In this document: in pieces, positions 1,649-30,976 of the stretch
Layout: every line of letters starts with the position of its first letter
Position numbering within the stretch: position 1 is the stretch's first letter
Assembly (NCBI RefSeq): GCF_018336915.1
Contig: NZ_CP064924.1
Location: 150,001 to 182,000 of the forward strand
Length of the DNA: 32,000 nt
Source of the DNA: Acaryochloris marina S15
GTDB taxonomy: Bacteria > Cyanobacteriota > Cyanobacteriia > Thermosynechococcales > Thermosynechococcaceae
Direction: 5' to 3'
Notes under the pieces: model-generated
Databases searched by the model: none
The model's input: the letters and a program-made list of their open reading frames with translations, nothing else
What the model was told of the DNA's origin: nothing
Made by a program: the position numbers and the translations under genes

Positions 1649-2053
1649 CTAATCCCTCATCCAACCTGGACAAGTATCGACCTCGCCTGTCTGGAATACA
1701 CTGAAGAGTTGTTCTGCAAACGCCACCGGAATAAACCAGTGGGCACAACCGATGTACAAATATGCATGGGCAGGTTCTCCCAGATAGAAAATTTCCAGGT
1801 TGATGTCACTATTTTGCTGCCAGATATCTTCTTCGTAGAGACTGGTTCCTCCTGGACAGATATAGGTGCAGATTAAACATTCATCGAAACTACCATCTTC
1901 CATATAGCCGATGTAGTTCTCTTGGTAAAAGTCAGAGGTTTTGAACTTGCGAATGACGATATGCAGCTCCCCTGGCCCCTGAATCTCCAGCTCTTGTCTA
2001 CCAGGATGATCCGTGATGCCGACTCGCCACCCCTGAATGTATTCCCTCTTCAT
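1649..2053 (-). CDS. Hypothetical Cys-rich protein, last gene of the modification operon
   Basis: The ORF-track entry runs 1649..2059. I prefer the ATG at 2053 because GGAGGTG lies 7 nt upstream, and the DUF5131 stop (2069) is only 15 nt upstream. No family recognised. Confidence 0.6.
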   Translation of the reverse strand: MKREYIQGWRVGITDHPGRQELEIQGPGELHIVIRKFKTSDFYQENYIGYMEDGSFDECLICTYICPGGTSLYEEDIWQQNSDINLEIFYLGEPAHAYLYIGCAHWFIPVAFAEQLFSVFQTGEVDTCPGWMRD

Positions 2054-2068
2054 CCGCAATCACCTCCG

Positions 2069-2938
2069 TCATCCAAACTCTGGAAATTCTCTCACTCGCA
2101 GCTCTTCCGGCCACTCTTGTATATCCCCACCCTTCGCTGAACGGAGCTTGGGAACACCCACGGGTTTGCTGCCGAGCTGCTTGATAAACACGGGGATATC
2201 TGCGGTCTTACACTGGTCTCGGATGGAGCGAATCCAGTCCACATCGTAAGGCCGAGCGCCAGGGCCAGACTCACCCCCGGTGATGCACCAATTTGCGGCA
2301 AGAGCACCAAGATCTACGGGTTTGAGCAGTGGTTCACAACTCAAAAACCGGACTGCTGCTGGTGTTTCTGCTAGCAACGGAATTCGCTCATCTGCGGCTT
2401 TCTGGTTCTCGACTGATACGCCTAACCAGAGATTGGACAGGGGCCAATCCCATTGACATGATTCAAGGTCAGCCAATACCTTTTGGCTAGCATTGGTTGA
2501 TCGGCCCTTAATGACAGCAGCAATCCGAATTCTGTTTTTGGCAGTCATGAGATAATCCCGCATTCGTCTTGGTCGTTTGGTCAGCATCTGCACTGTGACT
2601 TGAGGATTGAGCGCGATTGCAGCAAAAATCTGATCCAGCCACTCGTCTTTCACGGCTGGGTGGAACGGGTCAGACATCGACGGCATGAATACCCTGATCG
2701 GTTTCCGAAACTTGAATAGCTTCTCCAACTGCTCAGGGACAAAATTCACCTGGCCTGTCCAGTTCCCCTGCTCATCCACAACCCCCTGATACTGGGAAAA
2801 CTGTTGCAGCCGTCCTGACTTTGAAGCTCTGGCTGCATAGCAATGCTTACAACCGCTTTCCTTGGCTCCCTTAGCTCGAACTTTTGTGCAGCCCACCAAA
2901 CAATTGATGGTGTGATCGGTCCATTCGATAGTGGTCAT
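2069..2938 (-). CDS. DUF5131 (phage Gp37/Gp68 family) protein
   Basis: N-terminal IEWTD...GCTKV...GCKHCYA Cys motif, then SMSDPFH and LTKRP motifs typical of the family as I recall it. Its ATG overlaps the ASCH stop (ATGA at 2935-2938). Confidence 0.8.
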   Translation of the reverse strand: MTTIEWTDHTINCLVGCTKVRAKGAKESGCKHCYAARASKSGRLQQFSQYQGVVDEQGNWTGQVNFVPEQLEKLFKFRKPIRVFMPSMSDPFHPAVKDEWLDQIFAAIALNPQVTVQMLTKRPRRMRDYLMTAKNRIRIAAVIKGRSTNASQKVLADLESCQWDWPLSNLWLGVSVENQKAADERIPLLAETPAAVRFLSCEPLLKPVDLGALAANWCITGGESGPGARPYDVDWIRSIRDQCKTADIPVFIKQLGSKPVGVPKLRSAKGGDIQEWPEELRVREFPEFG

Positions 2939-3378
2939 GTCTTTTGCTCCATCAAAATTTTCAACGTTTCAGATCGGACATCTCGGAGTCCCTGCCCCCC
3001 GCGATAGGGACTAGGATCAGGCAGTGCAACGATGTTTCCTAACTGCCAAGCAAAGCGCCCAGGTTGCCAGCACCCCACGGCCAGCTCCAGTTCGGTTTGT
3101 GTGTCGATAAGCCTGGAGTCCATCTGGGGACAGTCCACCAGATCCGCAATCGCCACGATGCAACCGAGTGGGTAATCACATGGTTTGCGCGGCACCTTGT
3201 CACCCGTCAGATCATTAACTTGGCTCACTATGGCTTGCCCATCTAAGCCGATGGTTCGCTTGGCCGCATGAATAGCCAGCTTGCCTCGGTAGCGAGTGCC
3301 CCAAGAGCGGGTTTCAAATTGCTTGAGATTCAGGGCAATGAAGGTTGCCCACGGTTGCCAGAGGGTAATGATTTTCAT
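2935..3378 (-). CDS. ASCH domain protein
   Basis: MKIITLWQPWATFIA...ETRSW...YRGKLAIHAAK matches the ASCH beta-barrel N-terminus. I chose the ATG at 3378, 2 nt after the MT-A70 stop at 3381, rather than the track start at 3423. Confidence 0.7.
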   Translation of the reverse strand: MKIITLWQPWATFIALNLKQFETRSWGTRYRGKLAIHAAKRTIGLDGQAIVSQVNDLTGDKVPRKPCDYPLGCIVAIADLVDCPQMDSRLIDTQTELELAVGCWQPGRFAWQLGNIVALPDPSPYRGGQGLRDVRSETLKILMEQKT

Positions 3379-3380
3379 GG

Positions 3381-3998
3381 CTATGCCTCCGCTCCCCAGT
3401 TCTCCCAGCCTGGACGAGGGCACCGAGAGAACAACTCAATCCGCTGACCCCCGAGGGCATCACCTAGCCGATCTGCCATCTGGTAAAACTCTTCAGGCTT
3501 TTGAGAATGCTTACCCACAGGAGCTTGAAATGCGGTGGGAATATCGGTTAGTCCAAGGGCAGTAAAGGTCTTGGCCTTACCTTTACGACCTACTAAAATT
3601 TGCTCAGTTGCATTTCGCCCATAGTGTCCAATACCGTATCTAATCTTGCTTCTGTCTTGAGTAACCTTGACCCACGTATGAATTGCCTTATATTCAAACC
3701 CCCAGGACGCCATGACTTTGAATGCCAACGGTAGGTGATTATTTGTCGTCCACAACAACAGATAAGAATCTGGAGCGGCAATCGAACTCACAGGCATCGC
3801 CAAGATTTCCTCATCGGTCATCGAGGGATAAGGGCACCGTCCACGGTGGGTTTTGTCAGATTCTCTGAGGTGATAGCTCCACGGTGGATCAGCCACGATC
3901 AGGGAATAGGCACCCACAGGAAGGGCTGGGGTATTCGGAACAAGGTTGAGCGTAATAGCAAGCTTCTGCTGACCACGCTTGTCAGTGGGGGCATACAT
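3381..3998 (-). CDS. MT-A70 family DNA methyltransferase (N6-adenine type, DPPW motif)
   Basis: 205-aa ORF with IVADPPWSY catalytic motif and LLLWTTN / GHY motifs typical of MT-A70. Confidence 0.85.
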   Translation of the reverse strand: MYAPTDKRGQQKLAITLNLVPNTPALPVGAYSLIVADPPWSYHLRESDKTHRGRCPYPSMTDEEILAMPVSSIAAPDSYLLLWTTNNHLPLAFKVMASWGFEYKAIHTWVKVTQDRSKIRYGIGHYGRNATEQILVGRKGKAKTFTALGLTDIPTAFQAPVGKHSQKPEEFYQMADRLGDALGGQRIELFSRCPRPGWENWGAEA

Positions 3999-4041
3999 GG
4001 TTTTGCTCCAAGGTATAGAGAGTTGTATTCAGTCAAATTAT

Positions 4042-5169
4042 TCAAACTAGTGAGAGCTGCTTGACCTTCCCGGTCGCCTCTTGCCAGGTCTGCTCAAAGT
4101 AATTCGGTCGATGCACCTTATCTTGAATAAATCCAGGGGCCGCAACCCAGAACCCTTCACAGGTCAGGGACTCATTAGGCTTCCTGTGGTACTCGTAAGC
4201 TCTGGTGTAGGTCGGGTCTGATTCGTCACAGGTATAGCCGTGTTGCTTGGCAATCACACTCACTTGAGCATCAGCAGCACTACGATGCATTGGCTCAGAC
4301 ACTCGCGTGACTCGCCTACTGATTTGCTTGCCTTGATAAATGCGCTCAACCCGGTAAACCACCCAGTCAATTGAGTCTAGGTGATTCACTGCCAACTCCC
4401 TGACAGATTGGGGGGCAACCTCCCAGGCAGAGCGACTGGCAAACAGCTTCATTCTGGGGTTGAGGGCAAGCGCCGCAGCTTCCAAAACCAAGGCGTACAG
4501 GCCCGCATCCGGTTCAGCTTCCCAGCGCTGCCTCGCCTGTTCGGGCTTACAGAAGGGACAGAAAACACAGGCCGACTTGAGCCAATCTGCCCCGGTCTTT
4601 TCATGGATGTAGTCAATGCAAGTCTGTCTATCCCAGCCCCATTCTTGGAGGGGGAATCGATAATCAGACCCCATGCAGGGGTAATCAGCACACTTGGCTG
4701 AGCGCTTTTCTTCCCCTTTGCAATAACCCAGATATGGACCGATGGCCTCACCAGAGAGATGATCCGATATCCAGCTATCAATGACGACACCTTTAAACTT
4801 CATGGCACAGGTATGGGCACCACTCACAGGTTGGCTGGTGCCTGCAATTTTGAGAGAATGACCGAGAGTGTAATCTCCTTCGATATGGCAGATCTGGGGG
4901 TTTCGAGTATCACTCAAGACGGTGTATCCATCTTTTTTAGAGTGACCCGCCTTGGCGACCTGGACAAAGCGAATCTGATGTTGCCTGAGCAAGGGCAAGA
5001 TGTGTGCTTCGACCAAGTGCTTAGTGGATTGATGTTCGTTACCCGTCTGAGCGGTTATCAATATCAGATCATCAAAGCTAGAAAAAGGGCGATTTTGGGG
5101 ATTGTAGATCCAGGAAAGCAAAATTGCAGTTGAGTCAACTCCTAAACCCAAATTAAGTACGTGCATCAT
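4042..5169 (-). CDS. Divergent PP-loop-like (PAPS-reductase/adenine-nucleotide-alpha-hydrolase-like) protein
   Basis: N-terminal LNLGLGVDSTAILL resembles a degenerate SGGxDS PP-loop. PLQEWGWDRQTCIDYI...SACVFCPFC resembles the W..V..YI...C..C block of phage-type PAPS-reductase-like proteins, including the one at 6783-7808. I chose the ATG at 5169, which is coupled to the upstream micro-ORF, instead of the track start at 5244. Confidence 0.55.
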   Translation of the reverse strand: MMHVLNLGLGVDSTAILLSWIYNPQNRPFSSFDDLILITAQTGNEHQSTKHLVEAHILPLLRQHQIRFVQVAKAGHSKKDGYTVLSDTRNPQICHIEGDYTLGHSLKIAGTSQPVSGAHTCAMKFKGVVIDSWISDHLSGEAIGPYLGYCKGEEKRSAKCADYPCMGSDYRFPLQEWGWDRQTCIDYIHEKTGADWLKSACVFCPFCKPEQARQRWEAEPDAGLYALVLEAAALALNPRMKLFASRSAWEVAPQSVRELAVNHLDSIDWVVYRVERIYQGKQISRRVTRVSEPMHRSAADAQVSVIAKQHGYTCDESDPTYTRAYEYHRKPNESLTCEGFWVAAPGFIQDKVHRPNYFEQTWQEATGKVKQLSLV

Positions 5170-5267
5170 GGGTAGCTCTTCAAGACATCGTAGAGGAAGA
5201 AATACAAAAACATTCCGAAGTAGAGGGACTGCCAGAGCAGCCACCAGAGAAGGGTGTAGGCGTCCAT
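5166..5267 (-). CDS. 33-aa hydrophobic/aromatic micro-protein (MDAYTLLWWLLWQSLYFGMFLYFFLYDVLKSYP)
   Basis: Below the ORF-track size cutoff. TTAGGAGGCAATT precedes the ATG, a strong SD with a 5-nt spacer. Its TGA overlaps the next gene's ATG (ATGA at 5166-5169). The sequence has the composition of a single transmembrane helix. Confidence 0.45.
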   Translation of the reverse strand: MDAYTLLWWLLWQSLYFGMFLYFFLYDVLKSYP

Positions 5268-5319
5268 AATTGCCTCCTAAGTTTTCAAATTCCAGGTGGA
5301 AACTGAAATATTCGCGGTT

Positions 5320-6771
5320 TCAAAAATGTGGGGATGACAGGGAATCAAGGCAACGTTGCACAATCATCTGCATTACGGGTGGAGTAACGGCGTTGCCAAG
5401 CTGCTTGACCCTCTCGCGTTTATTTCCTAAAACTTTGTAATCTTGAGAAAAGGCCATCGCTGCCTGGATTTCATGAGGTTGCAACATGCGAAAATAGCAG
5501 TCTTCAACAGAGATAGAGCGATCCGGTTGCACCAGGGCATGGCGGTCGCCGGCAGTGATGGTGGGAATGGCTTTATCCACTCCACAGACTTGATCTGAGC
5601 CACTGTAATAGCTGGCTAGAAAAGGCTGAACTAAACCGTGATGCCCTCCCCCAGCGGTGACCGTACCTAGCGGCTCCTCCAGTGAGTGTGCTTGGTTGTG
5701 GTTTCGGAGTGTCACCATAAACGGCTGCACCAGCGAATTATGGTCAACCGTTGTGATTGTGGGCAGTGGGTCATGAATGCTAGCGGCCTGCGCTCCGGTA
5801 TAGTTCCTGACAATGAACGGCATTGCCAAGGCCATTGTTTGGCGGGCAGTCTGGGTGGGCAGAACCCTATCCACACTCCGAATTCGATGGCTCGTATCTT
5901 TGCCGTATGCTGTCTCCACCAAAACAGGAGAACAGAACTTCTCTAATCCTTTGCGAATGCGCTCTAGGGTTGCTGGCCTCAGTGGTCGCTTGCGATTGCC
6001 CACCTTGGTGCTGGGATAGCTCCAGTCAATCGCGGTATAGGCTGGGGTATAGTATGGCTCCACGACCTGGGCACAACGGGGGCAGCGGTATACGTACTGA
6101 TTGCGCTTGCCATAGCGACCCCACTTTTTAAATGGGGTTTTCCAAGACTGGATGGCCTCGACCTCGCCACATTCAGAGCATTGGGCCAGGGGAGTAAAGC
6201 TAAGGCTGGGCTTTGGGTTACCGTGCCTCCAGAAGACTATGTAAACACGATCTCTACTTTGAGGGCAGGAAGAAAACATGCTGTTGAAGAACACTGCCTC
6301 ATGGTCATACCCCAGCGTGTGCATGGCATTGAGCCAGCTATCGAACAGCGTCCAATGACGGACCTCAACAACGTTCTCGACGATGACGAAATTGTACCGA
6401 TGAAGCTCTGAAAATCTGACGATATCCCACATAGTAGCCCTCGACTTTTCTTCAGCCGGATCAATAGTTTGTGGGTTGAATAAGTCCATCTGGCCCAGGT
6501 TCTTGCGTCTTTTTCCTTTCGCAATCGTATGGTTTGTACACTCGGGCGAACTCAGCAAAATATCCGTACTGGGATAGCGACGAGGGTCGCAAGCACTGAT
6601 GTCACAACAGTCATGATTAGTGTTGGGGAAGTTGGTATTGTGGGTTTCCACCGCTTTAGCCCAGTGGTTAATCGCCATCACAATCTCGCAACCTGCTTGG
6701 GAAGCACCACTGCTCGAACCACCACACCCAGCAAATTGGTCGGTGACTGTGATGTAAGATTTCTTCTTCAT
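5320..6771 (-). CDS. DNA (cytosine-5)-methyltransferase
   Basis: Motif I DQFAGCGG, motif IV SPECTNHT (catalytic Cys), motif VI ENV, motif X QLGNAVTPPV. AAGGAG SD 7 nt upstream of the ATG. Confidence 0.9.
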   Translation of the reverse strand: MKKKSYITVTDQFAGCGGSSSGASQAGCEIVMAINHWAKAVETHNTNFPNTNHDCCDISACDPRRYPSTDILLSSPECTNHTIAKGKRRKNLGQMDLFNPQTIDPAEEKSRATMWDIVRFSELHRYNFVIVENVVEVRHWTLFDSWLNAMHTLGYDHEAVFFNSMFSSCPQSRDRVYIVFWRHGNPKPSLSFTPLAQCSECGEVEAIQSWKTPFKKWGRYGKRNQYVYRCPRCAQVVEPYYTPAYTAIDWSYPSTKVGNRKRPLRPATLERIRKGLEKFCSPVLVETAYGKDTSHRIRSVDRVLPTQTARQTMALAMPFIVRNYTGAQAASIHDPLPTITTVDHNSLVQPFMVTLRNHNQAHSLEEPLGTVTAGGGHHGLVQPFLASYYSGSDQVCGVDKAIPTITAGDRHALVQPDRSISVEDCYFRMLQPHEIQAAMAFSQDYKVLGNKRERVKQLGNAVTPPVMQMIVQRCLDSLSSPHF

Positions 6772-6782
6772 GTCTAATCTCC

Positions 6783-7808
6783 TTAAGTCGGTCCTGCGCT
6801 CTCCCCAAATGCCCCAGCAGGCAGGGTCCAGGTATTCGGGTCAATGAGGATCGGGGCTGTGTATTCATTGCTCAGGGCTAACCGGAGCTGATCAGGATTC
6901 TGGTGGATGGCAGCGTAAGCCGTTCCCTTATCGGCCATGTCTGGGATGGAAAGCTTGTTGTCGATGGTGTGTTGAAACTCTTGCTCGTACTGGTGCAACC
7001 GCTTTGTGCGCTCTGGCGAGATGGCCGCATTAGAAGCCCACTGATTAGGTGAGCCGAAAATGCAGAACTGACAGCTCAGCCGACCCCAGTCGAGGTAGTA
7101 GGCAGGATGTGCCAGGACTCCCCAGCGCTGAATCATCTCCCAGACTTGCTCACTCGTATATGAGTGGACGGGTCGCCAGTGGTCAATATGTCGCCTGAGT
7201 TTAGGGCTGTCCCGCCTATCAGTCCGGTGTGGCTCGAAGCTCTGGTACTTTGCTCTGGCTGCGCTCTCCTGTGCCCGCTCTCCGGTTACCACCAGAGTTC
7301 GAGCATGGTTGAACCGGGATTGGTTGGCAATGGCGGTGCTGAGAACATCAATCTTCAGATAGGAAGAACACCACCGAGTCTTGAGATCAGCGGTCTTTGC
7401 TGGGAACTTGCACCGAGTTCCGGGCTTGCCTTGCCCCCCAGATATTTGCTCACCATTAGGAGTCTGGAAGTGTGTGGGTGCTTTGGGTTGGTCCTTGCGG
7501 CACATCTCGCGTTCTAGCCCACCTTCTAGCCAACTCATATAAATGGGAAGGCCGAAGGCTTGGGCAAACTTGCGGCAATAGCTCTCGGTGACAGGCCAGT
7601 CGAAAAGGTTGTGGCCCATTGAATCGACCAAATGATGATGCAATTCAATCCTGTCTTTGGGTACGCCCAACTCCAGTAGTCGCAACAGACAGCAGATAGA
7701 GTCCTTACCACCGGAGAAGGCAACGAGAATGCGATCATAGGTGGACAAATCGGGGAGGGTCGAGGCACCGGGCACCTGGAAAGGCAAGGCCATTTGGGTA
7801 GCACTCAT
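6783..7808 (-). CDS. Phosphoadenosine phosphosulfate (PAPS) reductase-like PP-loop protein, phage/plasmid type
   Basis: FSGGKDSICCLL PP-loop and a later RLSCQFC motif. The track start at 7871 is a GTG lying inside the IS inverted repeat, so I use the ATG at 7808. The stop is 11 nt from the C5-MTase start. Confidence 0.8.
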   Translation of the reverse strand: MSATQMALPFQVPGASTLPDLSTYDRILVAFSGGKDSICCLLRLLELGVPKDRIELHHHLVDSMGHNLFDWPVTESYCRKFAQAFGLPIYMSWLEGGLEREMCRKDQPKAPTHFQTPNGEQISGGQGKPGTRCKFPAKTADLKTRWCSSYLKIDVLSTAIANQSRFNHARTLVVTGERAQESAARAKYQSFEPHRTDRRDSPKLRRHIDHWRPVHSYTSEQVWEMIQRWGVLAHPAYYLDWGRLSCQFCIFGSPNQWASNAAISPERTKRLHQYEQEFQHTIDNKLSIPDMADKGTAYAAIHQNPDQLRLALSNEYTAPILIDPNTWTLPAGAFGESAGPT

Positions 7809-7869
7809 GATTCTGGACCTAACAACACAATCTGAGTCGAACGGCGGGGCGTAAATCCGTGATTCTGAC

Positions 7870-9364
7870 ACGACTTGGCAAACTTCTTTATTTTTATAGA
7901 GGGATAATTAGTTCTAGGCTGGCATTATCACCTCCACAACTTGCTCGACAGATTGGCCTTGTTCAAAGAGTGATTGACAAAACTGTACGAGCGGATGCAA
8001 AACCTCACGAGTCAATCCGTAGAGCTTCTGGCCAATGCTTGGCGTTTTACTTGCAAAGCTAAATTTTTCAGATGTTCCCCCAGCGACAGGCGCATCCTGG
8101 AGCAACGACTGCGCCAGACAACTTAAAGCGATGTGGCGTTTGACCGCATCCTCGTTGCGTAGCTGAGCCGATTCCAGGCCACAGATGCCTTTGGTAAACT
8201 CATGAAAAACTTCACAGGGCCAGCGATAGCTCCAGGTGATGGCAATGCGCGAGACATCCCAGTGCAGCGCGTCAGTCACTAAAAAGCGAGGGGTATCATT
8301 CAAATCCTCCGTTTCATGAACAATGACAATCCGTTTGCGTCCGATTTTTTTGAGGCGTACGACTTTGCTAAAGGCCCAAATCTCCTTCACTTCGCCATTG
8401 CGTTGATGAATGCGGTAGTGCCGAAACGACTGGCCAGAGGTGCTACGAAGTTGTTGAGCCACTGCGTCAATGCGAGTCCATTGGTTGAACCAAAGCACGG
8501 AACGATTACACGCCAGCTCACTCACCCAATGCTTGCCGAATCCTTCAATGACGGTCGTTAAGTCCGCTGCGCATACGCCTGCATCAAAAGCATAATCCGC
8601 TGTCGGAAACTGCCCTTCCCCTTCAATTTGCTCAATCATGGCACTCAGCAGTTCCGTTCGCGTTTGATAGGCGTCACGATTATGCTGGTAGGCCACCAAC
8701 TCACTCAATCGCTCCATCGCCGCTGCGATAGTTTCATACTCGCCTTGACGGGTCATCTTCAGATACTCCAGTTCTGCGGCTTCCCACTGGGCCGCTTGCA
8801 CGGCGACGCCTATCCCATCTTGTCGCACTCGATTTGCCGCCACTGCGGTCAGAATCGTCTGATAACAGCTCATGCAATTATCAACATAATCGTACTGACG
8901 TTTGACCCCAAAAATCTGTTTGCTCCGTTCGTGATGTCCCAGTGTCCAATCTAGGCTAATCACTACACGTGCTCTGGGGTCATAATGCTGTGATACCTGT
9001 AGACGGTGGCGCACCATCAATGCCTCCTGCTCCCATGGCGATTCAAACACCCCGGCGTGCATTGCTCGACGACCTGAAAGGGGCTGCTCGGTTGTCGAGA
9101 CAAACTGACTGTGAATCCCTTGCAATGTTTTGTTCTCACTGAGTAGTAAGCCACTGAGGTATCGGCTCACATGCTCAAATCCGGCTTGTCGAGGAAATAA
9201 GTCGCGGTAAGCGCTCATGCCCTGCTTAATCGTGTTGGGGATGCCGACAAAAGGAAGCATTGTTGACGTTGCTCATTACGCTACAAACCTGAAACAAGCA
9301 TGACGCAACTAACACCATTAGCGACATAAATTGATGGCCTCAATGGGAAACTTTGCCAAGTCGT
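7870..9364 (-). mobile_element. IS element (IS701/IS4-like DDE transposase), 1495 bp, intact ends
   Basis: Terminal inverted repeats ACGACTTGGCAAA (7870-7882) and TTTGCCAAGTCGT (9352-9364). Flanking direct repeat GATTCTGAC at 7861-7869 and 9365-9373. This reads as a 9-bp TSD, or 7 bp if the IR is taken as 14 bp. Confidence 0.8.
7914..9260 (-). CDS. DDE transposase (IS701/IS4-like)
   Basis: 448-aa ORF. The ISLDWTLGHHERSKQIFGVKRQYD block resembles the first-D region of IS701-type transposases. The ORF lies between the IRs. Confidence 0.85.
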   Translation of the reverse strand: MLPFVGIPNTIKQGMSAYRDLFPRQAGFEHVSRYLSGLLLSENKTLQGIHSQFVSTTEQPLSGRRAMHAGVFESPWEQEALMVRHRLQVSQHYDPRARVVISLDWTLGHHERSKQIFGVKRQYDYVDNCMSCYQTILTAVAANRVRQDGIGVAVQAAQWEAAELEYLKMTRQGEYETIAAAMERLSELVAYQHNRDAYQTRTELLSAMIEQIEGEGQFPTADYAFDAGVCAADLTTVIEGFGKHWVSELACNRSVLWFNQWTRIDAVAQQLRSTSGQSFRHYRIHQRNGEVKEIWAFSKVVRLKKIGRKRIVIVHETEDLNDTPRFLVTDALHWDVSRIAITWSYRWPCEVFHEFTKGICGLESAQLRNEDAVKRHIALSCLAQSLLQDAPVAGGTSEKFSFASKTPSIGQKLYGLTREVLHPLVQFCQSLFEQGQSVEQVVEVIMPA

Positions 9365-9538
9365 GATTCTGACTGAAGTGAAGTCTTTGCTCCACTTCCC
9401 TGATTTACTCTTGGCAATCATCAGAACGTGCTGCCGGGAGACTGTTGAGAACACCTTGAGACGGGCGCCATTTCGTCTCCTGAGCGTTCCGAGGAAGTAC
9501 ACGAGATGATTCTGAGGCGAGTAGACTAAATCGCGCAT
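9281..9538 (-). pseudogene. Small operon gene with its 3' end replaced by the IS insertion
   Basis: GGAGGA SD 7 nt before the ATG at 9538. The ORF crosses the IS right end at 9364/9365. Deleting the IS and one TSD copy restores a 71-aa ORF ending at TAG 7819-7821, 10 nt before the PAPS-reductase-like start. Confidence 0.5.
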
Positions 9539-9586: not shown

Positions 9587-9880
9587 TTAAACTTCGATAT
9601 AGGTGACGGCAAACGCACCCTCAATATCTGCATTGCACTTTCTAAAGCAGTAGCAATCACTATCGATTTCTAGGGGATATTCCATCCAAAATCCTTGATG
9701 AACCTGTTGAGCTTCAGCAGGACAATCTGGAACAGATTCAGCGTTAACAGCTTGGATAAAAGGAACTGGATCGTGATGACCGATGGCATAGTAGCCAAAC
9801 AGGTCACCGCTCCAATCACAACCCACTTCCCGCAGTTCTTGAATCTCAATCGAGGCTGTCAACGGTTTAAGGCACTGCAT
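9587..9880 (-). CDS. Hypothetical small acidic protein
   Basis: 97-aa ORF with AGGAGG SD upstream of the ATG. D/E-rich with several Cys. No family recognised. Confidence 0.6.
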   Translation of the reverse strand: MQCLKPLTASIEIQELREVGCDWSGDLFGYYAIGHHDPVPFIQAVNAESVPDCPAEAQQVHQGFWMEYPLEIDSDCYCFRKCNADIEGAFAVTYIEV

Positions 9881-9975
9881 GATTTACCTCCTATTTGAGT
9901 GATGCGATTTTTTAGAAATTCGATAGTTGTTCAAAAGTTGATTCTTAGGCTGACATCGGCGTAGATAGCCACGTC

Positions 9976-10233
9976 TCACACCTGGGCCAGCACCTTCGAT
10001 CCTGCCTCCGTCTGATCACCCTCATCCATCGTTTGAAGATTCTTCAGATATCCTGGGGTTGCTCGTATTCCTCGCTTGTGACCGCAGCTCTCACAAATCC
10101 AACGACAGTAGGGACGACCAGAGGATTTATGAATCAATACTTGGGATGCGATCGCAAACTTCAGTTGATGACAACTAAAGCAACGACGAACTAACGGCAC
10201 CTCTAAGGGCCGCACAGATTTTTTGGAAAACAT
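9976..10233 (-). CDS. Hypothetical zinc-ribbon-like protein
   Basis: 85-aa ORF with CFSC...CESC cysteine pairs. Same strand as the array. Confidence 0.5.
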   Translation of the reverse strand: MFSKKSVRPLEVPLVRRCFSCHQLKFAIASQVLIHKSSGRPYCRWICESCGHKRGIRATPGYLKNLQTMDEGDQTEAGSKVLAQV

Positions 10234-10272
10234 GATAAATTTTTCCTAGTAGTTTTAATTGGTTATTGGCTG

Positions 10273-10304
10273 AGGCGATTCTTCTAGTTGGGAATCGCCT
10301 TTTT
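10273..10304 (+). terminator. Hairpin AGGCGATTC/GAATCGCCT followed by a T-run on the + strand
   Basis: 9-bp stem, 10-nt loop and TTTTT read directly. It is antisense to the surrounding minus-strand array. Confidence 0.45.
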
Positions 10305-10455
10305 CATTGATTCGATTGAGTCAAGACAGCCCTAACTACGGGGTTTCTGGTGCTTCCACTCCAGATAGGACTTGATGACATCGCAGTGGCAGGGCAAGGG
10401 AGCGCACCGTGATATGTTGTTCCTTGAGAAATGGAAATATGAATTACATAGTCCA

Positions 10456-10488
10456 AGGCGATTTTCAGGTATGGGAATCGCCTTTTTT
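10456..10488 (+). terminator. Second copy of the GGCGATT/AATCGCC hairpin with T6 on the + strand
   Basis: 8-bp stem AGGCGATT/AATCGCCT, 12-nt loop, TTTTTT. The stem sequence is shared with the hairpin at 10273. Confidence 0.45.
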
Positions 10489-10596
10489 CAAGGAATTTCT
10501 TGGTAGTCCTATGACTTGGGATGTTGGGAATGCTGTCAGAGTGGGAACCCTAAGCACATGTCTTATTCATTAGAATTCCAAAGGTAGCTTTCTGAG

Positions 10597-10911
10597 TTAG
10601 CTGCCTTTTTTGTTGCTCAAGCCAACCTCACACCAGGCAATCCAAGATTTCGCCAACTGGCAATCAGTGACATCATCAGGCACCCCTGCCCAGAACAGCT
10701 CGAAGGCTTGCTGAGCTTGCCAGAAATAAGCAAAATACCCCTCGCGCACCGACCAGTTGCACAACAGAAGATTGCGGAGAAACAGGGCTTGGAAGGGATG
10801 AAGGCGACCAGGATAGATCGGAAGCCCCTCATCCTCACAAAAGCCCTTGATATCTTCCCGGCAATATTCCGTCAAGGTTTTCAGTGCTTGCCAGTCGATG
10901 GTCAGGTTCAT
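10597..10911 (-). CDS. Hypothetical protein
   Basis: I chose the ATG at 10911 because it overlaps the upstream stop (ATGA at 10908-10911). The track start at 10959 would overlap the upstream gene by 50 nt. Confidence 0.55.
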   Translation of the reverse strand: MNLTIDWQALKTLTEYCREDIKGFCEDEGLPIYPGRLHPFQALFLRNLLLCNWSVREGYFAYFWQAQQAFELFWAGVPDDVTDCQLAKSWIAWCEVGLSNKKGS

Positions 10912-11354
10912 ATACCAAACTTTTTCTGAGCAGATATGAATAAGGTACTGGCCGCACACTTGAGTGTCTCTTCAGCCACTCCAGACTCCCCTAGTGCCCT
11001 GGATGCCTGCTTGAAGCAGAACGCATAGAGATCCGCTCGACTCATGATGTAACTTGCGATCGCACTTTTAGTATCCGCATCCAACTCTCCAGTATCCAGG
11101 GGTGGAGCCTCGACCACCGGAGGCTGACCTGGAACCGGGGCTTGCTCCACCAGGCTGTACTTTCCTTTGCTATCCTTAGCGACCTGGACAGGTTGGCCTT
11201 TGCGGAGAGCTTTGAGCACTGCATCATCGGGATTACCCCAAATCTTTATATCTTCTCCATCAGGGAGTGTGATTTTTGCATTGAGTCTTGGACCATGCTG
11301 GGTATCCCATTCTTTAGCGGGAAATTTGACCTTAGCAGTTAGTATTTGTGTCAT
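10908..11354 (-). CDS. Hypothetical protein with Pro-rich linker
   Basis: 148-aa ORF. ATGA overlap with the upstream gene at 11351-11354. No family recognised. Confidence 0.6.
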   Translation of the reverse strand: MTQILTAKVKFPAKEWDTQHGPRLNAKITLPDGEDIKIWGNPDDAVLKALRKGQPVQVAKDSKGKYSLVEQAPVPGQPPVVEAPPLDTGELDADTKSAIASYIMSRADLYAFCFKQASRALGESGVAEETLKCAASTLFISAQKKFGI

Positions 11355-11590
11355 TGTTCTGCTCCTTCTAATACCTCCATCAGTCCTGGCAAATTCTTAT
11401 TCGAAGCAGCCAGCAGATCAGGAGGAATCACTGATAACACTTGGGGAGAGAACCCCCAGATCAAGATTGCCGGGTCAATTCTTCCAGCTTTAACAAAGGC
11501 GATTGCTTGTTCTATCGATAACTGACACCAGGCATTCTCTGGATGGGGAGCTGGTACAGGGGGCAGAGTCGGCAGGGCAGAAGTGGTCAT
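11351..11590 (-). CDS. Hypothetical small protein
   Basis: 79-aa ORF, GGAG 8 nt upstream, translationally coupled to the next gene. Confidence 0.55.
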   Translation of the reverse strand: MTTSALPTLPPVPAPHPENAWCQLSIEQAIAFVKAGRIDPAILIWGFSPQVLSVIPPDLLAASNKNLPGLMEVLEGAEQ

Positions 11591-11638
11591 GAGTTTTTCT
11601 CCAGATACGCGAAACCCCCAGCGAATAAGCCAGGGGAA

Positions 11639-11671
11639 TTAATAGGTGTGAAGTCTTTTAATAGGTGTGAA
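11639..11671. repeat. Two direct copies of TTAATAGGTGTGAA spaced 19 nt apart
   Basis: Copies at 11639-11652 and 11658-11671 in the upstream region of the 11590 gene. Candidate operator. Confidence 0.6.
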
Positions 11672-11756
11672 ATGAGGAGGAAGATTTAAGCTAGCTTGTA
11701 GGTGGATGCGATTGCTAACGAGCAGCAGGTGATCGCATCCGCTAAGACCAGGATTG

Positions 11757-11912
11757 CTAAACCCTACACCAATAAACCAACCTCAACCCCATTGCAGCAA
11801 CATACTCCCTGATGACCGACCCAAGGCTTTCCTGGGTTTGGGCCTGCTGAAAGTCAATGAGCTGGAACGTGCGGCCATTCCAGACTTCGATTTTGGCAAT
11901 GTGGATTTTCAT
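11757..11912 (-). CDS. 51-aa small protein (MKIHIAKIEVWNGRTFQLIDFQQAQTQESLGSVIREYVAAMGLRLVYWCRV)
   Basis: Below the track cutoff. GGAGG 8 nt upstream of the ATG, and the sequence is non-repetitive. It explains the antisense 124-aa low-complexity track ORF as a shadow. Confidence 0.4.
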   Translation of the reverse strand: MKIHIAKIEVWNGRTFQLIDFQQAQTQESLGSVIREYVAAMGLRLVYWCRV

Positions 11913-12139
11913 GGGATTGCCTCCGATGATTCAGAAGAAAGCCCCCTAGCAGTGAACCAGGGGGCAAATGAGTGTGAGGGGAACAAGAAGGATAAGAAAG
12001 AAAAGAGAAGGTTTTGGGGGAGGGGGGTGCTGTTAATTGAGTTACAAGGCTTGGAGATATCCCGCCAATATTTCAGAAGAAAAACCCCGGACAGTAGATG
12101 CCGGGGTGCTTTGGAGATAATGAAATGAAGGAATGGGAA

Positions 12140-12370
12140 TTACCTTAACACTGCGGGAACGATGATGGCAATTACAGCCGTTGCAATCAAACCAAAGGCC
12201 AGGTTGATGAGCAGTTTCGAGGCTTCCCAGTAGGTGTCAGTTCGTTCATTAGCTGCTCGAACATCTTTATCGAGAGCTTCGACCTTGGTTGTTAGCTCCT
12301 GAATCTGGCCTGACATCGTTGTTAGAGCCTGTTCAATCGGATTATTGCTTTCAGGTGTAGATGCTGTCAT
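12140..12370 (-). CDS. Small coiled-coil protein with C-terminal transmembrane anchor
   Basis: AAGGAG 6 nt before the ATG at 12370. C-terminal LLINLAFGLIATAVIAIIVPAVL hydrophobic helix. Confidence 0.55.
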   Translation of the reverse strand: MTASTPESNNPIEQALTTMSGQIQELTTKVEALDKDVRAANERTDTYWEASKLLINLAFGLIATAVIAIIVPAVLR

Positions 12371-12455
12371 TGCAAGCTCCTTGGTTACTGTCATTGTATC
12401 AATCAGAGAAGAAGGGCACCCCAGCCAAGAGCCAGGGCGCAGAAGGGACGGGATA

Positions 12456-12800
12456 CTAGTACTCGCTGGAGTGCATCAGAGTCAGAACTCGGGTGGTGAC
12501 AGCGGTATTACCGGGTTCATCCGAGCCGTACTCCAGTTTTTTGTCAAAGTAGTCAATCTTCCAGAGATATTGCTCTCCTTTGAACTCGATCCGCCCGTAA
12601 TCGTGTTCTTGCCACGGGTCATTATCTTCCGTGAAATCATCGAACACACGGACCAGTCGAAAGAGTTCTTGCTGAGCTTCTGACGAAAGACCTTTAACAA
12701 GCTGAGTAGTGTAGACCTGACCTAGGGTATGGTCACCCTTACGAAAGCGGTCATTGAGCTGGGCAATGGTGGGGGCTTGGGTTACTTCTGTAGTGGTCAT
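12456..12800 (-). CDS. DUF3768 domain protein
   Basis: FDDFTEDNDPWQEHDYG...WKIDYFDKKLEYGSDEP...TTRVLTLM matches the DUF3768 consensus as I recall it. The internal ATG at 12800 with AGAGGA upstream is preferred over the track start at 13076, which would overlap the next gene. Confidence 0.7.
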   Translation of the reverse strand: MTTTEVTQAPTIAQLNDRFRKGDHTLGQVYTTQLVKGLSSEAQQELFRLVRVFDDFTEDNDPWQEHDYGRIEFKGEQYLWKIDYFDKKLEYGSDEPGNTAVTTRVLTLMHSSEY

Positions 12801-12864
12801 AAGATTGTCCTCTGAAATTCCTGAAACGGTCGAAGGGGCAGAGGTTGCCCCTTCGATGGATGGT

Positions 12865-13158
12865 CTAGAATTCGTCTTCGTATGCATCCTCAGCCCGGAG
12901 CTGACGGGATGAGGGAACTGTCTCCCAATGACTAAGTCGGGCATTGGGGCCAAATTGCTGCTTGACCCAATCTCTGAGCCGATCACCGAGTGAGCCAGGT
13001 CGATTCTTGACAGCGAAGTAGTATTCTTTTGAGTCTCCCCCATCGCGAATACCAGGCCAGAACTCAACCTGAACAAAGACTAGGAAATATTCAGGATGGA
13101 GTGGATCTGTAACTCGTTCATCGATCCACTGCTCTAGTTGCGTTAAGGTAGTTGGCAT
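12865..13158 (-). CDS. Hypothetical acidic protein, first gene of the minus-strand array
   Basis: 97-aa ORF with AAGGAAA upstream. No family recognised. Confidence 0.55.
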   Translation of the reverse strand: MPTTLTQLEQWIDERVTDPLHPEYFLVFVQVEFWPGIRDGGDSKEYYFAVKNRPGSLGDRLRDWVKQQFGPNARLSHWETVPSSRQLRAEDAYEDEF

Positions 13159-13508: not shown

Positions 13509-13754
13509 ATGCTGACTCTGTTGAAGTTGGTCGAGAATTTGGAACTCAGTTTCAGTCAGTGGTTTCTCTTAACACGTCGAACTCAGGGATTAACTCAAGA
13601 CGATGTAGCTGAGGCACTTGGTATTAGCGGTCAGTCAGTTAGTAATTGGGAAAGAGGCCGTTCTATTCCTACACTGACCATTGATCAGATAAAAACTTTA
13701 TGCAGAATTCTAAACTGCACCCTGGATGACATTCCTAATGCTGATGTTGAATAA
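13509..13754 (+). CDS. XRE-family helix-turn-helix transcriptional regulator
   Basis: LTQDDVAEALGISGQSVSNWERGRSIP is a canonical HTH_3 motif. GGGAGG SD upstream. Confidence 0.85.
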   Translation: MLTLLKLVENLELSFSQWFLLTRRTQGLTQDDVAEALGISGQSVSNWERGRSIPTLTIDQIKTLCRILNCTLDDIPNADVE

Positions 13755-14198: not shown

Positions 14199-17100
14199 AT
14201 GAACTCATCCCAATCCTTCATCCCCACCCGCAAGGGCAACCCCTGCGACCTCTGCGGGGACTTCAAAGGAAAATGCAGCACCGTCGAAAACCTCCATCTC
14301 TGCATGTCCCTCTCAGGCCAGATCGCAGGCTATCGCTATCTCGGCCAGTCCAAAGATGGACTCTGGGGTAAATATGTCGTAGACAATGGGCAGAACCTCC
14401 GTCAGGAAGACCGGGAACGCAGATGGCAAGAGCAACGGATTCTTAGAGAAAAACGTGCCCAAGCCGAAGCCAAACGTCACGCCCAATCCCTCCCTGCACC
14501 AGAACGGGATCGGCTCTACCGCCAGCTCCTAGGTCAACTCACCTTGCACCCAGCAGATCGGGCTGACTTGTATCGTCGTGGATTTACAGATGATCAGATC
14601 AAAGACTGGGGCGTGAAATCAGTCGATCAGTGGCAATCGCTTACGACAGAGCTACCCCATACCTTGCCAGGGGTGAACTTGGATGGCAGATCGATCAATA
14701 CTCCAAGGCCAGGATATTTGTGTCCAATCCTTGATGCAGATAATCTGATCGTCGGATTCCAGATCAGATCCCGCAGTTCTGAAAGGGGGCGCTATTATTG
14801 GCTGACAGGAAAGACTAGGAAACGACCCAACGGACCCACACCCCACCTTCCCACTGGTGAACTCCCTCTATCCATTCACCAGCCAGAGCAGATCACTAGA
14901 GACTCAATCGCCCTCGTAGAGGGAACTGGGGCCAAGCCTCGCATTCTTGCTCAACGACTTGGACTCATTGCCATCGGCGCGGCAGGGGGATTGTTTGCGG
15001 CATCCCCTGAAACATTGAAAGCAACTCTGGCTCAGCTCGGCACAACCACTATCGAGTTTTACCCAGATGCCGGGGCTATTCAGAACAAGTCAGTGTTGCG
15101 ACAATACCGGGCAACTTGGGAACTTCTCAAGGATTGGGGCTACAGTGTTAGGGTCGCATGGTGGAAGCAGACCGATAAACGCATCCATCTTGACATTGAT
15201 GAACTGGACGACATTAGTCAGATTCGGTTGTTGTCAGTGGCCGATTTTGAACAGATTGTGGCCCAGTGCAACCGATTACTGCACAAGCTCCAAGACGTTC
15301 TCACAACGTTTATCCGTCCTTCATCACCGACCCTAGGGTTTGCGACTTCTAATGAACAACAAACCCAGACCCCTAACCTTCGTAGAACGAAGCGAACTGC
15401 ATCATATGATGAGTGTGCTGAAATACTACATACAGCAAGTCGTCGAGCTAGACGATCCCATCCCCGTGTTGCACGACTGCTTAAAGCCCATCGAAGACAG
15501 CAACATGTTTCAAGACTTCGACTGGAAAACTATCGAAGACGCATTAGAAGACGTGCTGCAACATCGACAGACCACTCAGGGCGCAGCATCCATAGCAGCC
15601 CTGGAAATCACGGGACTCTCAATACAACAACGCCTCTAGTCCACGAATACCAACCTGGCGAACGACTCCAGACCTGGCAAACCCTCATCTCATCGGGTTT
15701 TCCCTATATCCTCGATACCTCCCAACCGGGTACAGGTAAAAGCTACGACTCTGGGAACATCAACCCGATTGACTTCAAGGTATCTCAGGTCATCTATCTC
15801 TCAGACCAGCACCGAAATCCCACCGTATCAACCCTAGAACGTGGGAATGGCTGGAATGACCTAGAAGCTAGACATGGGGGGCTGAATCGGGTCGGCAATC
15901 GACTTCAGCGATCTGCCAAGGGTGATATGTATGCAGTTCCTGCCAACTGTAGTCGGATTGGGGTCTTGAATGCCCTACGGGATAAGAATATCCCTGGTGC
16001 CGATACTGCCAATTTGATCTGTGGAACCTGCGTGGCTAGAGAAGCCTGCATCAATGCGGAAGGTCCAGGGTATGGGTATTTGAACCAGCGGCGTAATGTC
16101 CTGGGTTCACCCCTACTGAGGGCACACCCTGATAGTCTGCCTGACCCAGAGGATTATCCCCTGGAAAACTCGATGTTGATCTGGGATGAACCGGGACAGA
16201 ACTATCAGGTTAAGCAGTCTGTAGTTGTCACCTTCAACGACTTGCAGCAAACAATCTCAACCCTCATTCTTTATCCTGAAGTGTTCGCCTTAGTGCAACC
16301 TTTACTAGTGGCACTGCTACCCCTGTTAGATGGGTCCGAGAACCTGGGCAAGTATGGCCTGAAGCATCTGGAGGTGAAAGGAAAACTCCCCGATATGGCA
16401 GGGGTAAAGCTTGGTGAAATTGCTCTGCTACTATCCCCTAACCTAGGCTTTCTCAACACCACATCAGACTATGGGGTGGACCTTGCGGATTTGCCCAAGC
16501 AACTCAGAAAGGCATTCTCTGAACGAGACTCCGAGATGGCAGAGCAGGCTAGGAATGGGGTCGTTAAGCAATGGCTGGTTCCCCTAATCCGCATACTGCA
16601 AGGTGGAGCAGGATGTGTCCAGGTTAGTCACTATGGCCTTGTTCTGAACACCCCAACCCCTCGACATCGAGCCTTAGCTCAAGCTGCCCAAGCCAATGTG
16701 TTCCTCGATGCCACCTTATCCCGTGAAGACTTAGCCCTAAAGCTGGGTTGTTCTCCTGATGAAATTCTAGTCGTGCAGCAAGCCGTCCCAGATACCGGAA
16801 ACCTGGAGGTGATTCAGGTGAAGGACATGGGACGAGTGGGCATGAGTCGGGGTGGCGATCAGACCAAGCGCATTGGGGCCTTAGCTCAGCATTACCAAGA
16901 CTTGGATGCAGTGAATACCCGAACGATTGACTTCAAGAAGTTTGAGAAGGATGGGGCCTGGTGGCGGGATAGCCGAGGGGTTAATGATTTTCTTACAGTC
17001 CAGACCCTAGTCCTCGTGGGCACTCCCTGCCGTAACCTCAATGACCTCGCTGCTGAGTTTGCGATTGTCTGTGGGTATTACCCAGAAGACGATGACCCGC

Positions 17101-21938: not shown

Positions 21939-22331
21939 ATGATGCCGAAGAAAACTAACAAACTAAATAAGCCTTTAACGGGGAAAGCGCTATTGACCCA
22001 AGTTAAATCCCTAAACGATTTGACTCGTGAAGAAAAAGCCAAAGCCTGTGGGTACTACAAAGTCACTAAAGATGGCACAGAACGCATCAACGTCATGGCC
22101 TTCCTCAATGCAGTTTTGGACGCAGAAGGAATGGACCTAGATGCAAAAAGCAAGAGCAACAAGAAGATGGAAGGACGACCCTCCACCTTTCGCATCAGCG
22201 TACAATCCAATGGCAATCTATTGGTCGGCAATGCCTACACCAAGAGAATGGAACTGCAACCGGGAGATGAGTTTGAAATCGCTCTAGGGCGTAAACATAT
22301 TCATTTGAAACTCAAGACTGAAGAGGATTGA
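21939..22331 (+). CDS. AbrB-family (cyAbrB-like) transcriptional regulator with C-terminal SpoVT/AbrB domain
   Basis: The C-terminal FRISVQSNGNLLVGNAYTKRMELQPGDEFEIALGRKHIHLK matches the swapped-hairpin AbrB fold sequence pattern. A C-terminal position for this domain is typical of cyanobacterial AbrB-like proteins. Confidence 0.75.
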   Translation: MMPKKTNKLNKPLTGKALLTQVKSLNDLTREEKAKACGYYKVTKDGTERINVMAFLNAVLDAEGMDLDAKSKSNKKMEGRPSTFRISVQSNGNLLVGNAYTKRMELQPGDEFEIALGRKHIHLKLKTEED

Positions 22332-22339
22332 TCGTTGAT

Positions 22340-22799: not shown

Positions 22800-22842
22800 T
22801 AGACTAAGAACATCGCTAAGACTTAACCTCATTCCAACAACT

Positions 22843-30959: not shown

Positions 30960-30976
30960 TACGGTGTACACATAAG

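Follow-up and report, generated by a model that had tools for sequence, protein, structure and literature searches.

Within a window of 32,000 nucleotides from the Acaryochloris marina S15 contig NZ_CP064924.1 (positions 150,001 to 182,000 of the forward strand), a row of minus-strand genes at 1649-9538 encodes two orphan DNA methyltransferases and two PP-loop proteins related to PAPS reductases, here called PAPSred and PPloop2. An initial annotation, made from the sequence alone, had read this row as one translationally coupled operon that may install or process a DNA base modification beyond m5C and m6A, or else act as a composite anti-restriction device. We conclude, with moderate confidence, that the row is a modular anti-restriction or establishment array of separately exchangeable genes, partly decayed, and not one dedicated pathway. 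This reading draws on the observed anatomy, homologies, mosaicism and co-occurrence statistics of the genes: the set is reshuffled and eroded among Acaryochloris plasmids, and outside the genus its members almost never occur together.

Anatomy of the row

The features of the row, from its upstream end, are:

9366-9538, minus strand: 5' part (57 codons plus 2 nt) of the gene for a basic small protein of 71 amino acids (aa), cut by an insertion sequence (IS); a GGAGGA Shine-Dalgarno sequence lies upstream of its ATG at 9538
7869-9365, minus strand: IS701-like insertion sequence of 1497 bp, transposase open reading frame (ORF) at 7914-9260
7819-7861, minus strand: 3' part of the 71-aa small gene, with 10 nt between its stop codon and the start of PAPSred
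6783-7808, minus strand: PAPSred, PAPS-reductase-like PP-loop ATP pyrophosphatase, 341 aa (PF01507, E 1e-7; phrog_424, E 1e-28)
5320-6771, minus strand: orphan C5-cytosine DNA methyltransferase, 483 aa, with a large inserted target-recognition region (PF00145, E 9e-31; phrog_116)
5166-5267, minus strand: pep33, a hydrophobic micro-ORF of 33 aa, with AGGAGG 5 nt upstream and ATGA coupling to the next gene
4042-5169, minus strand: PPloop2, a divergent PAPS-reductase paralogue with an extra C-terminal domain, 375 aa (phrog_424, E 2e-13)
3381-3998, minus strand: orphan N6-adenine DNA methyltransferase of the MT-A70 family, 205 aa (PF05063, E 1e-35; phrog_359, E 1e-62; PADLOC MTase_II)
2935-3378, minus strand: ASCH (PUA-like) domain protein, 147 aa (TRIP4 ASCH match in the PDB; phrog_3193, E 6e-32)
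2069-2938, minus strand: DUF5131 (Gp37/Gp68) protein, 289 aa (PF07505, E 1e-70)
1649-2059, minus strand: lineage-restricted small protein of 134-136 aa, the final gene of the row, without a family match

Families were assigned by a Pfam scan of the 30 larger ORFs of the window and by NCBIfam and PADLOC scans of the array and its neighbouring ORFs. All minus-strand genes of the initial annotation were found in place and their family assignments are supported, with PHROGs matches for six of the nine ORFs of the row. The row itself is real, although it had been counted as an eight-gene unit while nine ORFs were listed, and it does not end where it was thought to: co-oriented genes reach ~13.1 kb upstream, so that 1649-9538 is only the distal part of the row. 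The 17 ORFs listed from 13158 down to 1649 are all on the minus strand and form an array of ~11.5 kb, of which 1649-9538 is the distal half.

Junctions within the row measure, in order, 10, 11, 52, -4 (ATGA), 43, 2, -4 (ATGA) and 9 nt. Spacings of 2-15 nt or ATGA overlaps, as initially described, account for all but two of them, namely the 52 nt between the C5 methylase and pep33 and the 43 nt between PPloop2 and the MT-A70 gene. The short gaps and ATGA overlaps point to genes being translated together within modules. In promoter and terminator scans, site numbers were not above those of shuffled controls.

The set is reshuffled and eroded among Acaryochloris plasmids

Megablast searches with the window DNA returned matches only to Acaryochloris plasmids. 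Four plasmids were examined, and their arrays compare with that of the window as follows:

pMB03: same order, with another IS between MT-A70 and PPloop2; DUF5131 42%, last gene 36%, ASCH and MT-A70 ~90% identical
pREC3: no PPloop2; PAPSred and the C5 methylase separated by two other genes
pMB01: retains only ASCH, a split (frameshifted) DUF5131 gene, the last gene, interrupted by an internal stop, and a PAPSred remnant
pREB3: retains DUF5131, an unannotated MT-A70 gene and two PAPSred fragments

The micro-ORF pep33 (MDAYTLLWWLLWQSLYFGMFLYFFLYDVLKSYP) is rich in aromatic and hydrophobic residues and has a strong AGGAGG site. It is intact in four plasmids (window 5166-5267, locus L001 13583-13684, locus L002 10831-10932 and locus L004 9590-9691), and its stop codon always overlaps the start of the next gene as ATGA, whether this is PPloop2 (window and pMB03) or MT-A70 (pREC3 and pREB3). 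The ratio of nonsynonymous to synonymous polymorphism (pN/pS) was 0.23-0.47 in six of six pairs. It may be either a coupling leader, which would couple translation into whichever gene comes next, or a small membrane peptide. In pREC3 and pREB3, where pep33 abuts MT-A70, the MT-A70 start reads MITKYAPTD and not MYAPTD. Comparison of window 4042-5169 with L002 10808-10935 suggests that PPloop2 was gained or lost as a cassette, precisely at the ATGA junction of pep33 and MT-A70.

Members of the row almost never co-occur outside the genus

The search for the whole set was anchored on PPloop2 (in genome and viral collections), on PAPSred (viral) and on DUF5131 (viral). Since single-protein scans of viral contigs yielded 5 loci for DUF5131 and 0 for PAPSred, alignment queries were used for the viral scans. 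PPloop2 gave 80 genomic loci, from Cyanobacteria, Acidobacteria, Actinobacteria, Heliobacteria and Chloroflexi, and 8 viral loci, in which partners were sought at the level of hidden Markov models within ~10 kb. A PAPSred-like gene was detected in 36 of these 88 loci, the C5-methylase subfamily of the row in 8, DUF5131 in 1, and MT-A70, ASCH and the last gene in 0; single-sequence tblastn and phmmer may overlook distant relatives of MT-A70 or ASCH, so that each zero is a lower bound. The 85 viral DUF5131 loci contained a C5 methylase in 8 cases, ASCH in 6, PAPSred in 3, MT-A70 in 2 and PPloop2 in 1, and among 75 viral loci of distant PAPSred homologues each partner was present in 5-12%. In none of the PPloop2-, PAPSred- or DUF5131-anchored searches did the whole set recur outside Acaryochloris.

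A gene order that is not conserved in relatives had been named in advance as an outcome that speaks against a joint pathway. Since neither order nor content is conserved, being reshuffled within Acaryochloris and almost never assembled outside it, the proposal that the whole set jointly installs a modification beyond m5C and m6A has to be given up. The modification idea survives as a smaller module, consisting of PAPSred and PPloop2, sometimes with an SPxC-type C5 methylase and the 71-aa protein.

Comparison with plasmid leading regions

The alternative offered by the initial annotation, a composite anti-restriction device, fits the data: there are two intact orphan methylases, no nuclease partner, and families of phage and plasmid type. 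The C5 methylase (PF00145, 107.9 bits; TIGR00675, 102.9 bits against a cut-off of 100.65) shows the motifs FAGCGG, ENV, QSRDR and GNAV in its translation, and its motif IV reads SPEC, in the SPxC form common to the whole subfamily. The MT-A70 protein (PF05063, 123.5 bits against a cut-off of 23.9) contains the stretch IVADPPWSY with the DPPW catalytic motif.

Orphan methylases are enriched in plasmid leading regions, on the transferred strand (T-strand), and tables of leading-region families place DUF932/YubP at a median position of 1 from the origin of transfer (oriT) and list a 73-member PAPS-reductase family as well as ASCH proteins (Samuel et al. 2024, PMC11541004). Like these anti-defence islands, the row combines orphan methylases without a nuclease partner and many small ORFs on one strand, and the related arrays of pMB03 and pMB01 start with a DUF932/YubP-family gene. 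Unlike them, it has no nearby relaxase, SSB, PsiB or Ard gene, the window copy of the array is without DUF932, and the hosts are cyanobacterial megaplasmids instead of enterobacterial plasmids.

Several observations weigh against the array being an anti-restriction or establishment island of independent modules. By Pfam, the 30 larger ORFs of the 32-kb window include neither a relaxase nor a DUF932 gene, and the MobF relaxase of pREB3 lies ~40 kb from the array. Pfam and NCBIfam detected no ArdA, ArdB/KlcA, ArdC, PsiB or SSB in the array. The IS insertion and the pseudogenes of the sister plasmids suggest relaxed selection. As noted above, distant MT-A70 and ASCH relatives could have been missed. 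Finally, ATGA coupling and the recurrent adjacency of PAPSred and PPloop2 indicate that some neighbours are functionally tied, so that independent modules are not the whole story.

A placement in the leading region in the strict sense was considered and could not be established, with no relaxase in the window and the one of pREB3 ~40 kb away.

PAPSred and PPloop2

PAPSred carries the SGGxDS pyrophosphate-binding loop by which PP-loop ATP pyrophosphatases are recognised. Its invariant motifs are SGGKDS (S32-G-G-K-D-S37), C147-x4-K152, GxRxxESxxR and SC246xxC249. The description of PPloop2 as a second, divergent PP-loop-like protein proved right. Its start, the ATG at 5169, is fixed by 20 homologues, and in the same 20 sequences the P-loop is degenerate (G[ML]GV[DE]S), with an invariant GxGV[DE]S in place of SGGxDS; C121-x4-K126, a GxxxxExxR stretch and SAC201xxC204P are also present. 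PPloop2 had no Pfam or NCBIfam match, and a PDB sequence search with PPloop2 and PAPSred gave no usable match (a weak 'PptA' alignment at E 0.57). Although PPloop2 lacks the SGGxDS loop, its fold and homology are supported: hhalign matched it to PAPSred with a probability of 95% (E 3e-8, 225 columns) and with the motif features aligned. Its AlphaFold2 (AF2) model has a predicted local distance difference score (pLDDT) of 91; in Foldseek the sole meaningful PDB neighbour of this model is the PP-loop sulfur transferase LarE (probability 0.99, template-modelling (TM) score 0.41), and the best viral match in BFVD is a Vibrio phage 'PAPS reductase' (E 7e-6). PPloop2 is a paralogue of PAPSred with a degenerate nucleotide loop, the same cysteine triad and an extra C-terminal domain. 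It is also a defined, uncharacterised family, with 513 representatives at E<=1e-30 in a library of 1.84 billion proteins; of 120 listed homologues, 23 came with a name from their source, in every case 'hypothetical protein'.

Of all the genes near PPloop2, a PAPSred-like gene is by far the most frequent, and 24 of the 88 loci have one within 1.5 kb. It is on the same strand in 35 of the 36 loci that have it, occurs in both gene orders, and this neighbourhood spans Cyanobacteria, Acidobacteria and Actinobacteria. A triad of PAPSred, PPloop2 and an SPxC-type C5 methylase was found in five independent contexts (window/pMB03 and loci L015, L044, L088 and L102). In one of them, an Acaryochloridaceae metagenome-assembled genome (L015), the order is permuted to PPloop2, 71-aa protein, PAPSred and C5 methylase, with a 39% identical copy of the 71-aa protein between the two PP-loop genes. 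The genes that recur around PPloop2 encode MobA/VirD2 or TrwC relaxases, DUF932, Gp157, ThiF with a prokaryotic E2 (PRTRC-like), ParB, RadC, DUF3560, LPD29 and SSB; they are the cargo of conjugative elements, and in other phyla PPloop2 lies 3-5 kb from relaxases.

On a Kitasatospora chromosome (L005 9156-11200), a gene for a 282-aa PAPS reductase overlaps the start of a PPloop2 homologue. The pair is flanked by SSB, VbhA and DUF2637 genes and by a gene for a TrwC relaxase of 1698 aa, a leading-region-like position in an integrated element.

That PAPSred and PPloop2, alone among the members of the row, recur together this often suggests a joint function. They could constitute a smaller pathway, a two-subunit Fe-S ATP-pyrophosphatase accompanied by the 71-aa protein and often by the SPxC-type C5 methylase, that would place a non-methyl mark (e.g. 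sulfur or an amine) without DndD/DndE-type partners, the remaining genes being bystanders. The adjacency counts, the overlap of the two genes beside a TrwC relaxase in Kitasatospora and the permuted triad of L015 all speak for it, as does the finding that two paralogues share a cysteine triad while the P-loop of one is degenerate, as is typical of active/inactive heteromers. The triads of PAPSred and PPloop2 also resemble the site in DndC, a PP-loop enzyme whose 4Fe-4S centre sits on three cysteines (PMC10853773), a likeness that is by analogy. However, a PAPSred-like gene is missing within 10 kb in 52 of the 88 PPloop2 loci, pREC3 retains PAPSred and the C5 methylase without PPloop2, and PPloop2 is present in only 7 of 80 PAPSred-anchored viral loci. 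Moreover, no sulfur donor, ATPase or DNA-targeting partner is present, and both genes are common cargo of the same type of island, which alone raises their co-occurrence. On balance we regard such a pathway as unlikely.

A more specific proposal would have PAPSred and PPloop2 form a PAPS-reductase-like Fe-S machine of two subunits, so far undescribed, in conjugative elements and phages; one subunit would bind ATP, and the other, degenerate one would bear the extra C-terminal domain. It would either put a non-methyl mark on incoming DNA or neutralise phosphorothioation-type defence, with no DndD/E- or SspB/C-like partner and often with a small basic protein and an SPxC-type C5 methylase. We consider this proposal unlikely.

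Relation to Dnd and other defence or modification systems

According to the initial annotation, no role had been assigned to PP-loop enzymes in mobile elements. This is out of date, as shown by the leading-region PAPS-reductase family mentioned above and by phage work. Two neighbouring phage-specific genes in Vibrio crassostreae podoviruses give escape from Dnd, one of them a fusion of a PAPS-reductase domain to Dam (Piel et al., bioRxiv 10.1101/2021.05.05.442762); a 2026 survey restates the PAPS::Dam anti-Dnd result and reports that PAPS reductases cluster in anti-defence hotspots (PMC13551039). In this phage module a PAPS-reductase-type domain is physically joined to a DNA methylase, within a variable anti-defence region of the mobile element; in the row, the PAPSred and C5 methylase genes are adjacent, with a gap of 11 nt. 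The same adjacency is seen in Pseudoalteromonas phage KB12-38: there a PAPSred homologue (49% identical) precedes a non-orthologous C5 methylase by 39 nt, a PPloop2-like gene lies 3 kb upstream, and downstream there is a DndB-like gene. The row differs from the anti-Dnd module in having separate genes instead of a fusion, a C5-cytosine methylase instead of Dam, and an additional degenerate paralogue.

In KB12-38 (L341, record 46448-55293), genes for a methyltransferase, the PPloop2-like PAPS reductase, a ligase-like protein, PAPSred, the C5 methylase, the DndB-like protein and a 'sulfate reductase' lie on one strand. This PAPS-reductase/methylase cluster is richer than that of the window and could serve as an experimental model.

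PAPSred shares with DndC and SspD a PP-loop/PAPS-reductase fold, weak matches (E about 1e-8 to 1e-10) and three conserved cysteines. However, its weak DndC, BrxP and SspD matches are far below the family cut-offs: against the DndC equivalog model TIGR03183 it scored 34.2 bits (cut-off 290.4), its PADLOC DndC match (E 1.5e-10) covers only residues 143-229, and the SspD match is weak (E 2.6e-7). The row is also without DndA, DndD/SspC and DndE/SspB. The Dnd core set includes a DndD-type ABC ATPase and the DNA-recognising partner DndE (PMC12707154), and neither was found among the 30 larger window ORFs (Pfam) or the array ORFs (NCBIfam, PADLOC). PADLOC returned no SspB nickase or SspC ATPase from the array. 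Pfam over the 30 larger window ORFs and PADLOC over the array gave no BREX PglZ/BrxC, no DISARM DrmA/B/C and no helicase, DUF1998 or PLD protein. The absence of Dnd, Ssp, BREX, DISARM and Dpd partners and of a restriction endonuclease, as first noted, is thus borne out within these scans.

Membership in the Dnd, Ssp, BREX, DISARM or Dpd systems is rejected on the core genes missing from these scans and on the sub-threshold scores. A literature search on IbrA/IbrB returned nothing relevant.

ASCH, DUF5131 and the last gene

The ASCH protein had no Pfam match at E 0.01; residues 4-85 match the ASCH domain of human ASC-1/TRIP4 in the PDB (E 1.3e-10), and counterparts that are 88-90% identical in pMB03 and pREC3 are annotated as ASCH. 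Its gene starts 2 nt after MT-A70, and the ATGA overlap with DUF5131 is also found in pMB03, pREC3 and pMB01.

The DUF5131 protein, which is 100% identical to an Acaryochloris marina protein, has three invariant cysteines (C17, C30 and C33, CX12CX2C) and an invariant GGESG. Its AF2 model (pLDDT 88) has spore photoproduct lyase as best PDB fold (probability 0.97, TM about 0.35), with lysine 2,3-aminomutase lower in the list and TM-scores of 0.3-0.4 overall. In SFLD/RadicalSAM.org, DUF5131 stands among the radical SAM subgroups, next to spore photoproduct lyase (PMC9477430). Three invariant N-terminal cysteines, a GGE-type motif and a partial TIM-barrel model agree with this placement, whereas the cysteine spacing (CX12CX2C and not CX3CX2C) and the low TM-scores set the protein apart. 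It falls short of the equivalog model for radical SAM mobile pair protein A (TIGR04471), with 54.3 bits against a cut-off of 355. Literature searches for DUF5131 and PF07505 found no functional or experimental study. The family is very large, all 8000 scored candidates reaching E<=1e-10; it is of putative radical-SAM type and consistently located in mobile elements.

In Planktothrix, on a Nodularia plasmid and in an alphaproteobacterium (L257 7001-7936, L259 7001-7936 and L260 7001-8059), DUF5131 closes a long same-strand run of 10-18 small ORFs without known function, and convergent genes follow. No methylase lies near DUF5131 in these three loci, and a staphylococcal-nuclease (SNase) gene is nearby in two of them.

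The last protein gave no match in Pfam, NCBIfam, PHROGs or PADLOC and has 7 close homologues among 5.8 billion proteins. Copies that are 36-37% identical stand directly after DUF5131 in pMB03 and pREB3. It had been called Cys-rich; among divergent copies a single cysteine is invariant. A role as metal-cluster partner of DUF5131, in the manner of TcmP, was considered and rejected in view of the missing family match, the 7 close homologues and the non-conserved cysteines.

At 299-1087, on the plus strand and convergent with the array end, there is a gene for a Cas4/RecB-like PD-(D/E)XK nuclease; pREB3 has this nuclease in the corresponding position, at 95% identity. One could ask whether the row belongs to a host or plasmid defence, a modification-based self/non-self system with an effector not recognised as such, e.g. 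DUF5131 or this nuclease. DUF5131 matches the PADLOC candidate components PDC-M41B and PDC-M30B (E 3e-55), the best PADLOC match of the C5 methylase is DrmMII of DISARM (E 2e-42), and the nuclease adjoins the row both here and in pREB3. Yet pMB03, pREC3 and pMB01 lack the nuclease beside the array, and it matches Cas4/RecB-type exonucleases (phrog_69), not restriction enzymes. PADLOC found no PDC partner 'A' proteins among the neighbours, the Pfam and PADLOC scans contain no DrmA/B/C, PglZ, BrxC or DndD-H genes, and the context is that of mobile-element cargo of the relaxase, DUF932 and ParB type. A defence system is for these reasons very improbable.

The insertion sequence and the state of the array

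That the small gene at the head of the row is disrupted by an IS could be established exactly. The element has terminal inverted repeats of 17 nt (7869-7885 and 9349-9365: CACGACTTGGCAAA) and is flanked by a 7-bp target duplication, TCAGAAT, at 7862-7868 and 9366-9372. An empty site with an intact 71-aa gene exists in pMB03, and joining the 9366-9538 part to the 7819-7861 part restores a 71-aa ORF that is 96% identical to this intact gene. The transposase matches Pfam DDE_5 (31.2 bits, cut-off 27) and, below the cut-off, the NCBIfam IS701 model NF033540 (104.8 bits, cut-off 150). Megablast found IS copies that are 99.7-99.9% identical on other Acaryochloris plasmids (Acaryochloris sp. 'Moss Beach'); one match (H4, 99.7% identical, on another Acaryochloris plasmid) ends exactly at 7869 and 9365. 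Since the copies are near-identical, the insertion is recent and the element has been active recently, and since the transposase has the orientation of the row, read-through is possible. The different IS between MT-A70 and PPloop2 in pMB03 resembles window 30958-31577. IS elements appear to have hit the array repeatedly.

These insertions raise the possibility that the row is an eroding relic, functionless in this replicon, silenced by the IS at its head and kept only by hitch-hiking. Consistent with decay, an IS splits the first gene here and another has entered the pMB03 array, sister plasmids have a frameshifted DUF5131, an internal stop in the orphan last gene and PAPSred fragments, a DUF4326 remnant in the window (see below) is a further sign of array erosion, and pMB03 and pMB01 (two of the four plasmids examined) are typed as non-mobilizable. 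However, the eight ORFs downstream of the IS-split gene are all intact with their catalytic motifs preserved, the insertion is recent and may be read through, and pep33 is under purifying selection. We therefore judge a functionless relic to be quite improbable, and retain partial decay as a property of the modular array.

Upstream continuation and surroundings

Upstream of the row, the following features were found:

9587-13158, minus strand: upstream continuation of the co-oriented array, with ORFs of 97, 85, 120, 148, 79, 51 and 84 aa, the DUF4326 remnant and the DUF3768 gene
10329-10406, minus strand: DUF4326 remnant of 26 codons; the DUF4326 gene is intact in pMB03 and pMB01
12456-13076, minus strand: DUF3768 protein (PF12599, E 9e-36)
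13509-13754, plus strand: divergently transcribed regulator of the Xre type with a helix-turn-helix (HTH), at the array head (NCBIfam HTH matches)

Homologues of the upstream genes occur in the same order in pMB03, pMB01 and pREB3, where the divergent Xre-type regulator is arranged likewise. The 84-aa ORF at 12140-12394 (minus strand), inside the array, matches the ssr2422 thylakoid membrane protein family (72 bits, cut-off 38), odd company for DNA-modification genes.

Beyond the regulator, an ORF of 1169 aa (14199-17708, plus strand) sits at the position taken in pMB03 by DUF932 and a regulator. Its N-terminus carries a CxxC...C motif, and its PADLOC match is a faint DnaG-like one (E 3.5e-4); Pfam, NCBIfam and the PDB gave none. 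The rest of the window contains cyanobacterial genes (cyAbrB, a group-2 sigma factor and DUF1830) and further transposases. The AbrB-like regulator and the group-2 sigma factor at 21939-23784 (plus strand) resemble an AbrB/HU/sigma-70 module, of which pREB3 has two full copies plus a partial HU copy.

Proposed roles and implications

For the modular anti-restriction array that we favour, we infer all enzymatic activities and the protective role from homology and context. The orphan C5-cytosine and MT-A70 methylases would pre-methylate the DNA of the element, so that host restriction enzymes would not cut it. PAPSred and the 71-aa basic protein, often joined by PPloop2, would make up a second module. 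By analogy with the anti-Dnd PAPS::Dam protein and from the adjacency statistics, PAPSred, probably with PPloop2 as an active/degenerate hetero-oligomer, may act on DNA or on a modification-dependent defence of the host. The ASCH protein is predicted to be a PUA-like binder of nucleic acids or modified bases, loosely paired with the radical-SAM-type DUF5131 protein, which for its part usually appears to stand alone at the end of small-gene arrays in mobile elements and whose nearest solved fold is a DNA-repair enzyme. The last gene is a lineage-specific orphan.

If this reading is true, the array would be a cyanobacterial-megaplasmid example of the known methylase-rich anti-restriction islands, useful for annotation and in itself unsurprising. 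The negative result is worth keeping, in that the nine-ORF row is a mosaic and should not be pursued as a single pathway. PPloop2 comprises hundreds of clusters, has a confident model and, as its main partner on mobile elements, a canonical PAPS-reductase-like paralogue. It is thus a concrete target for learning how PAPS-reductase-type proteins, which are anti-Dnd in one phage, work.

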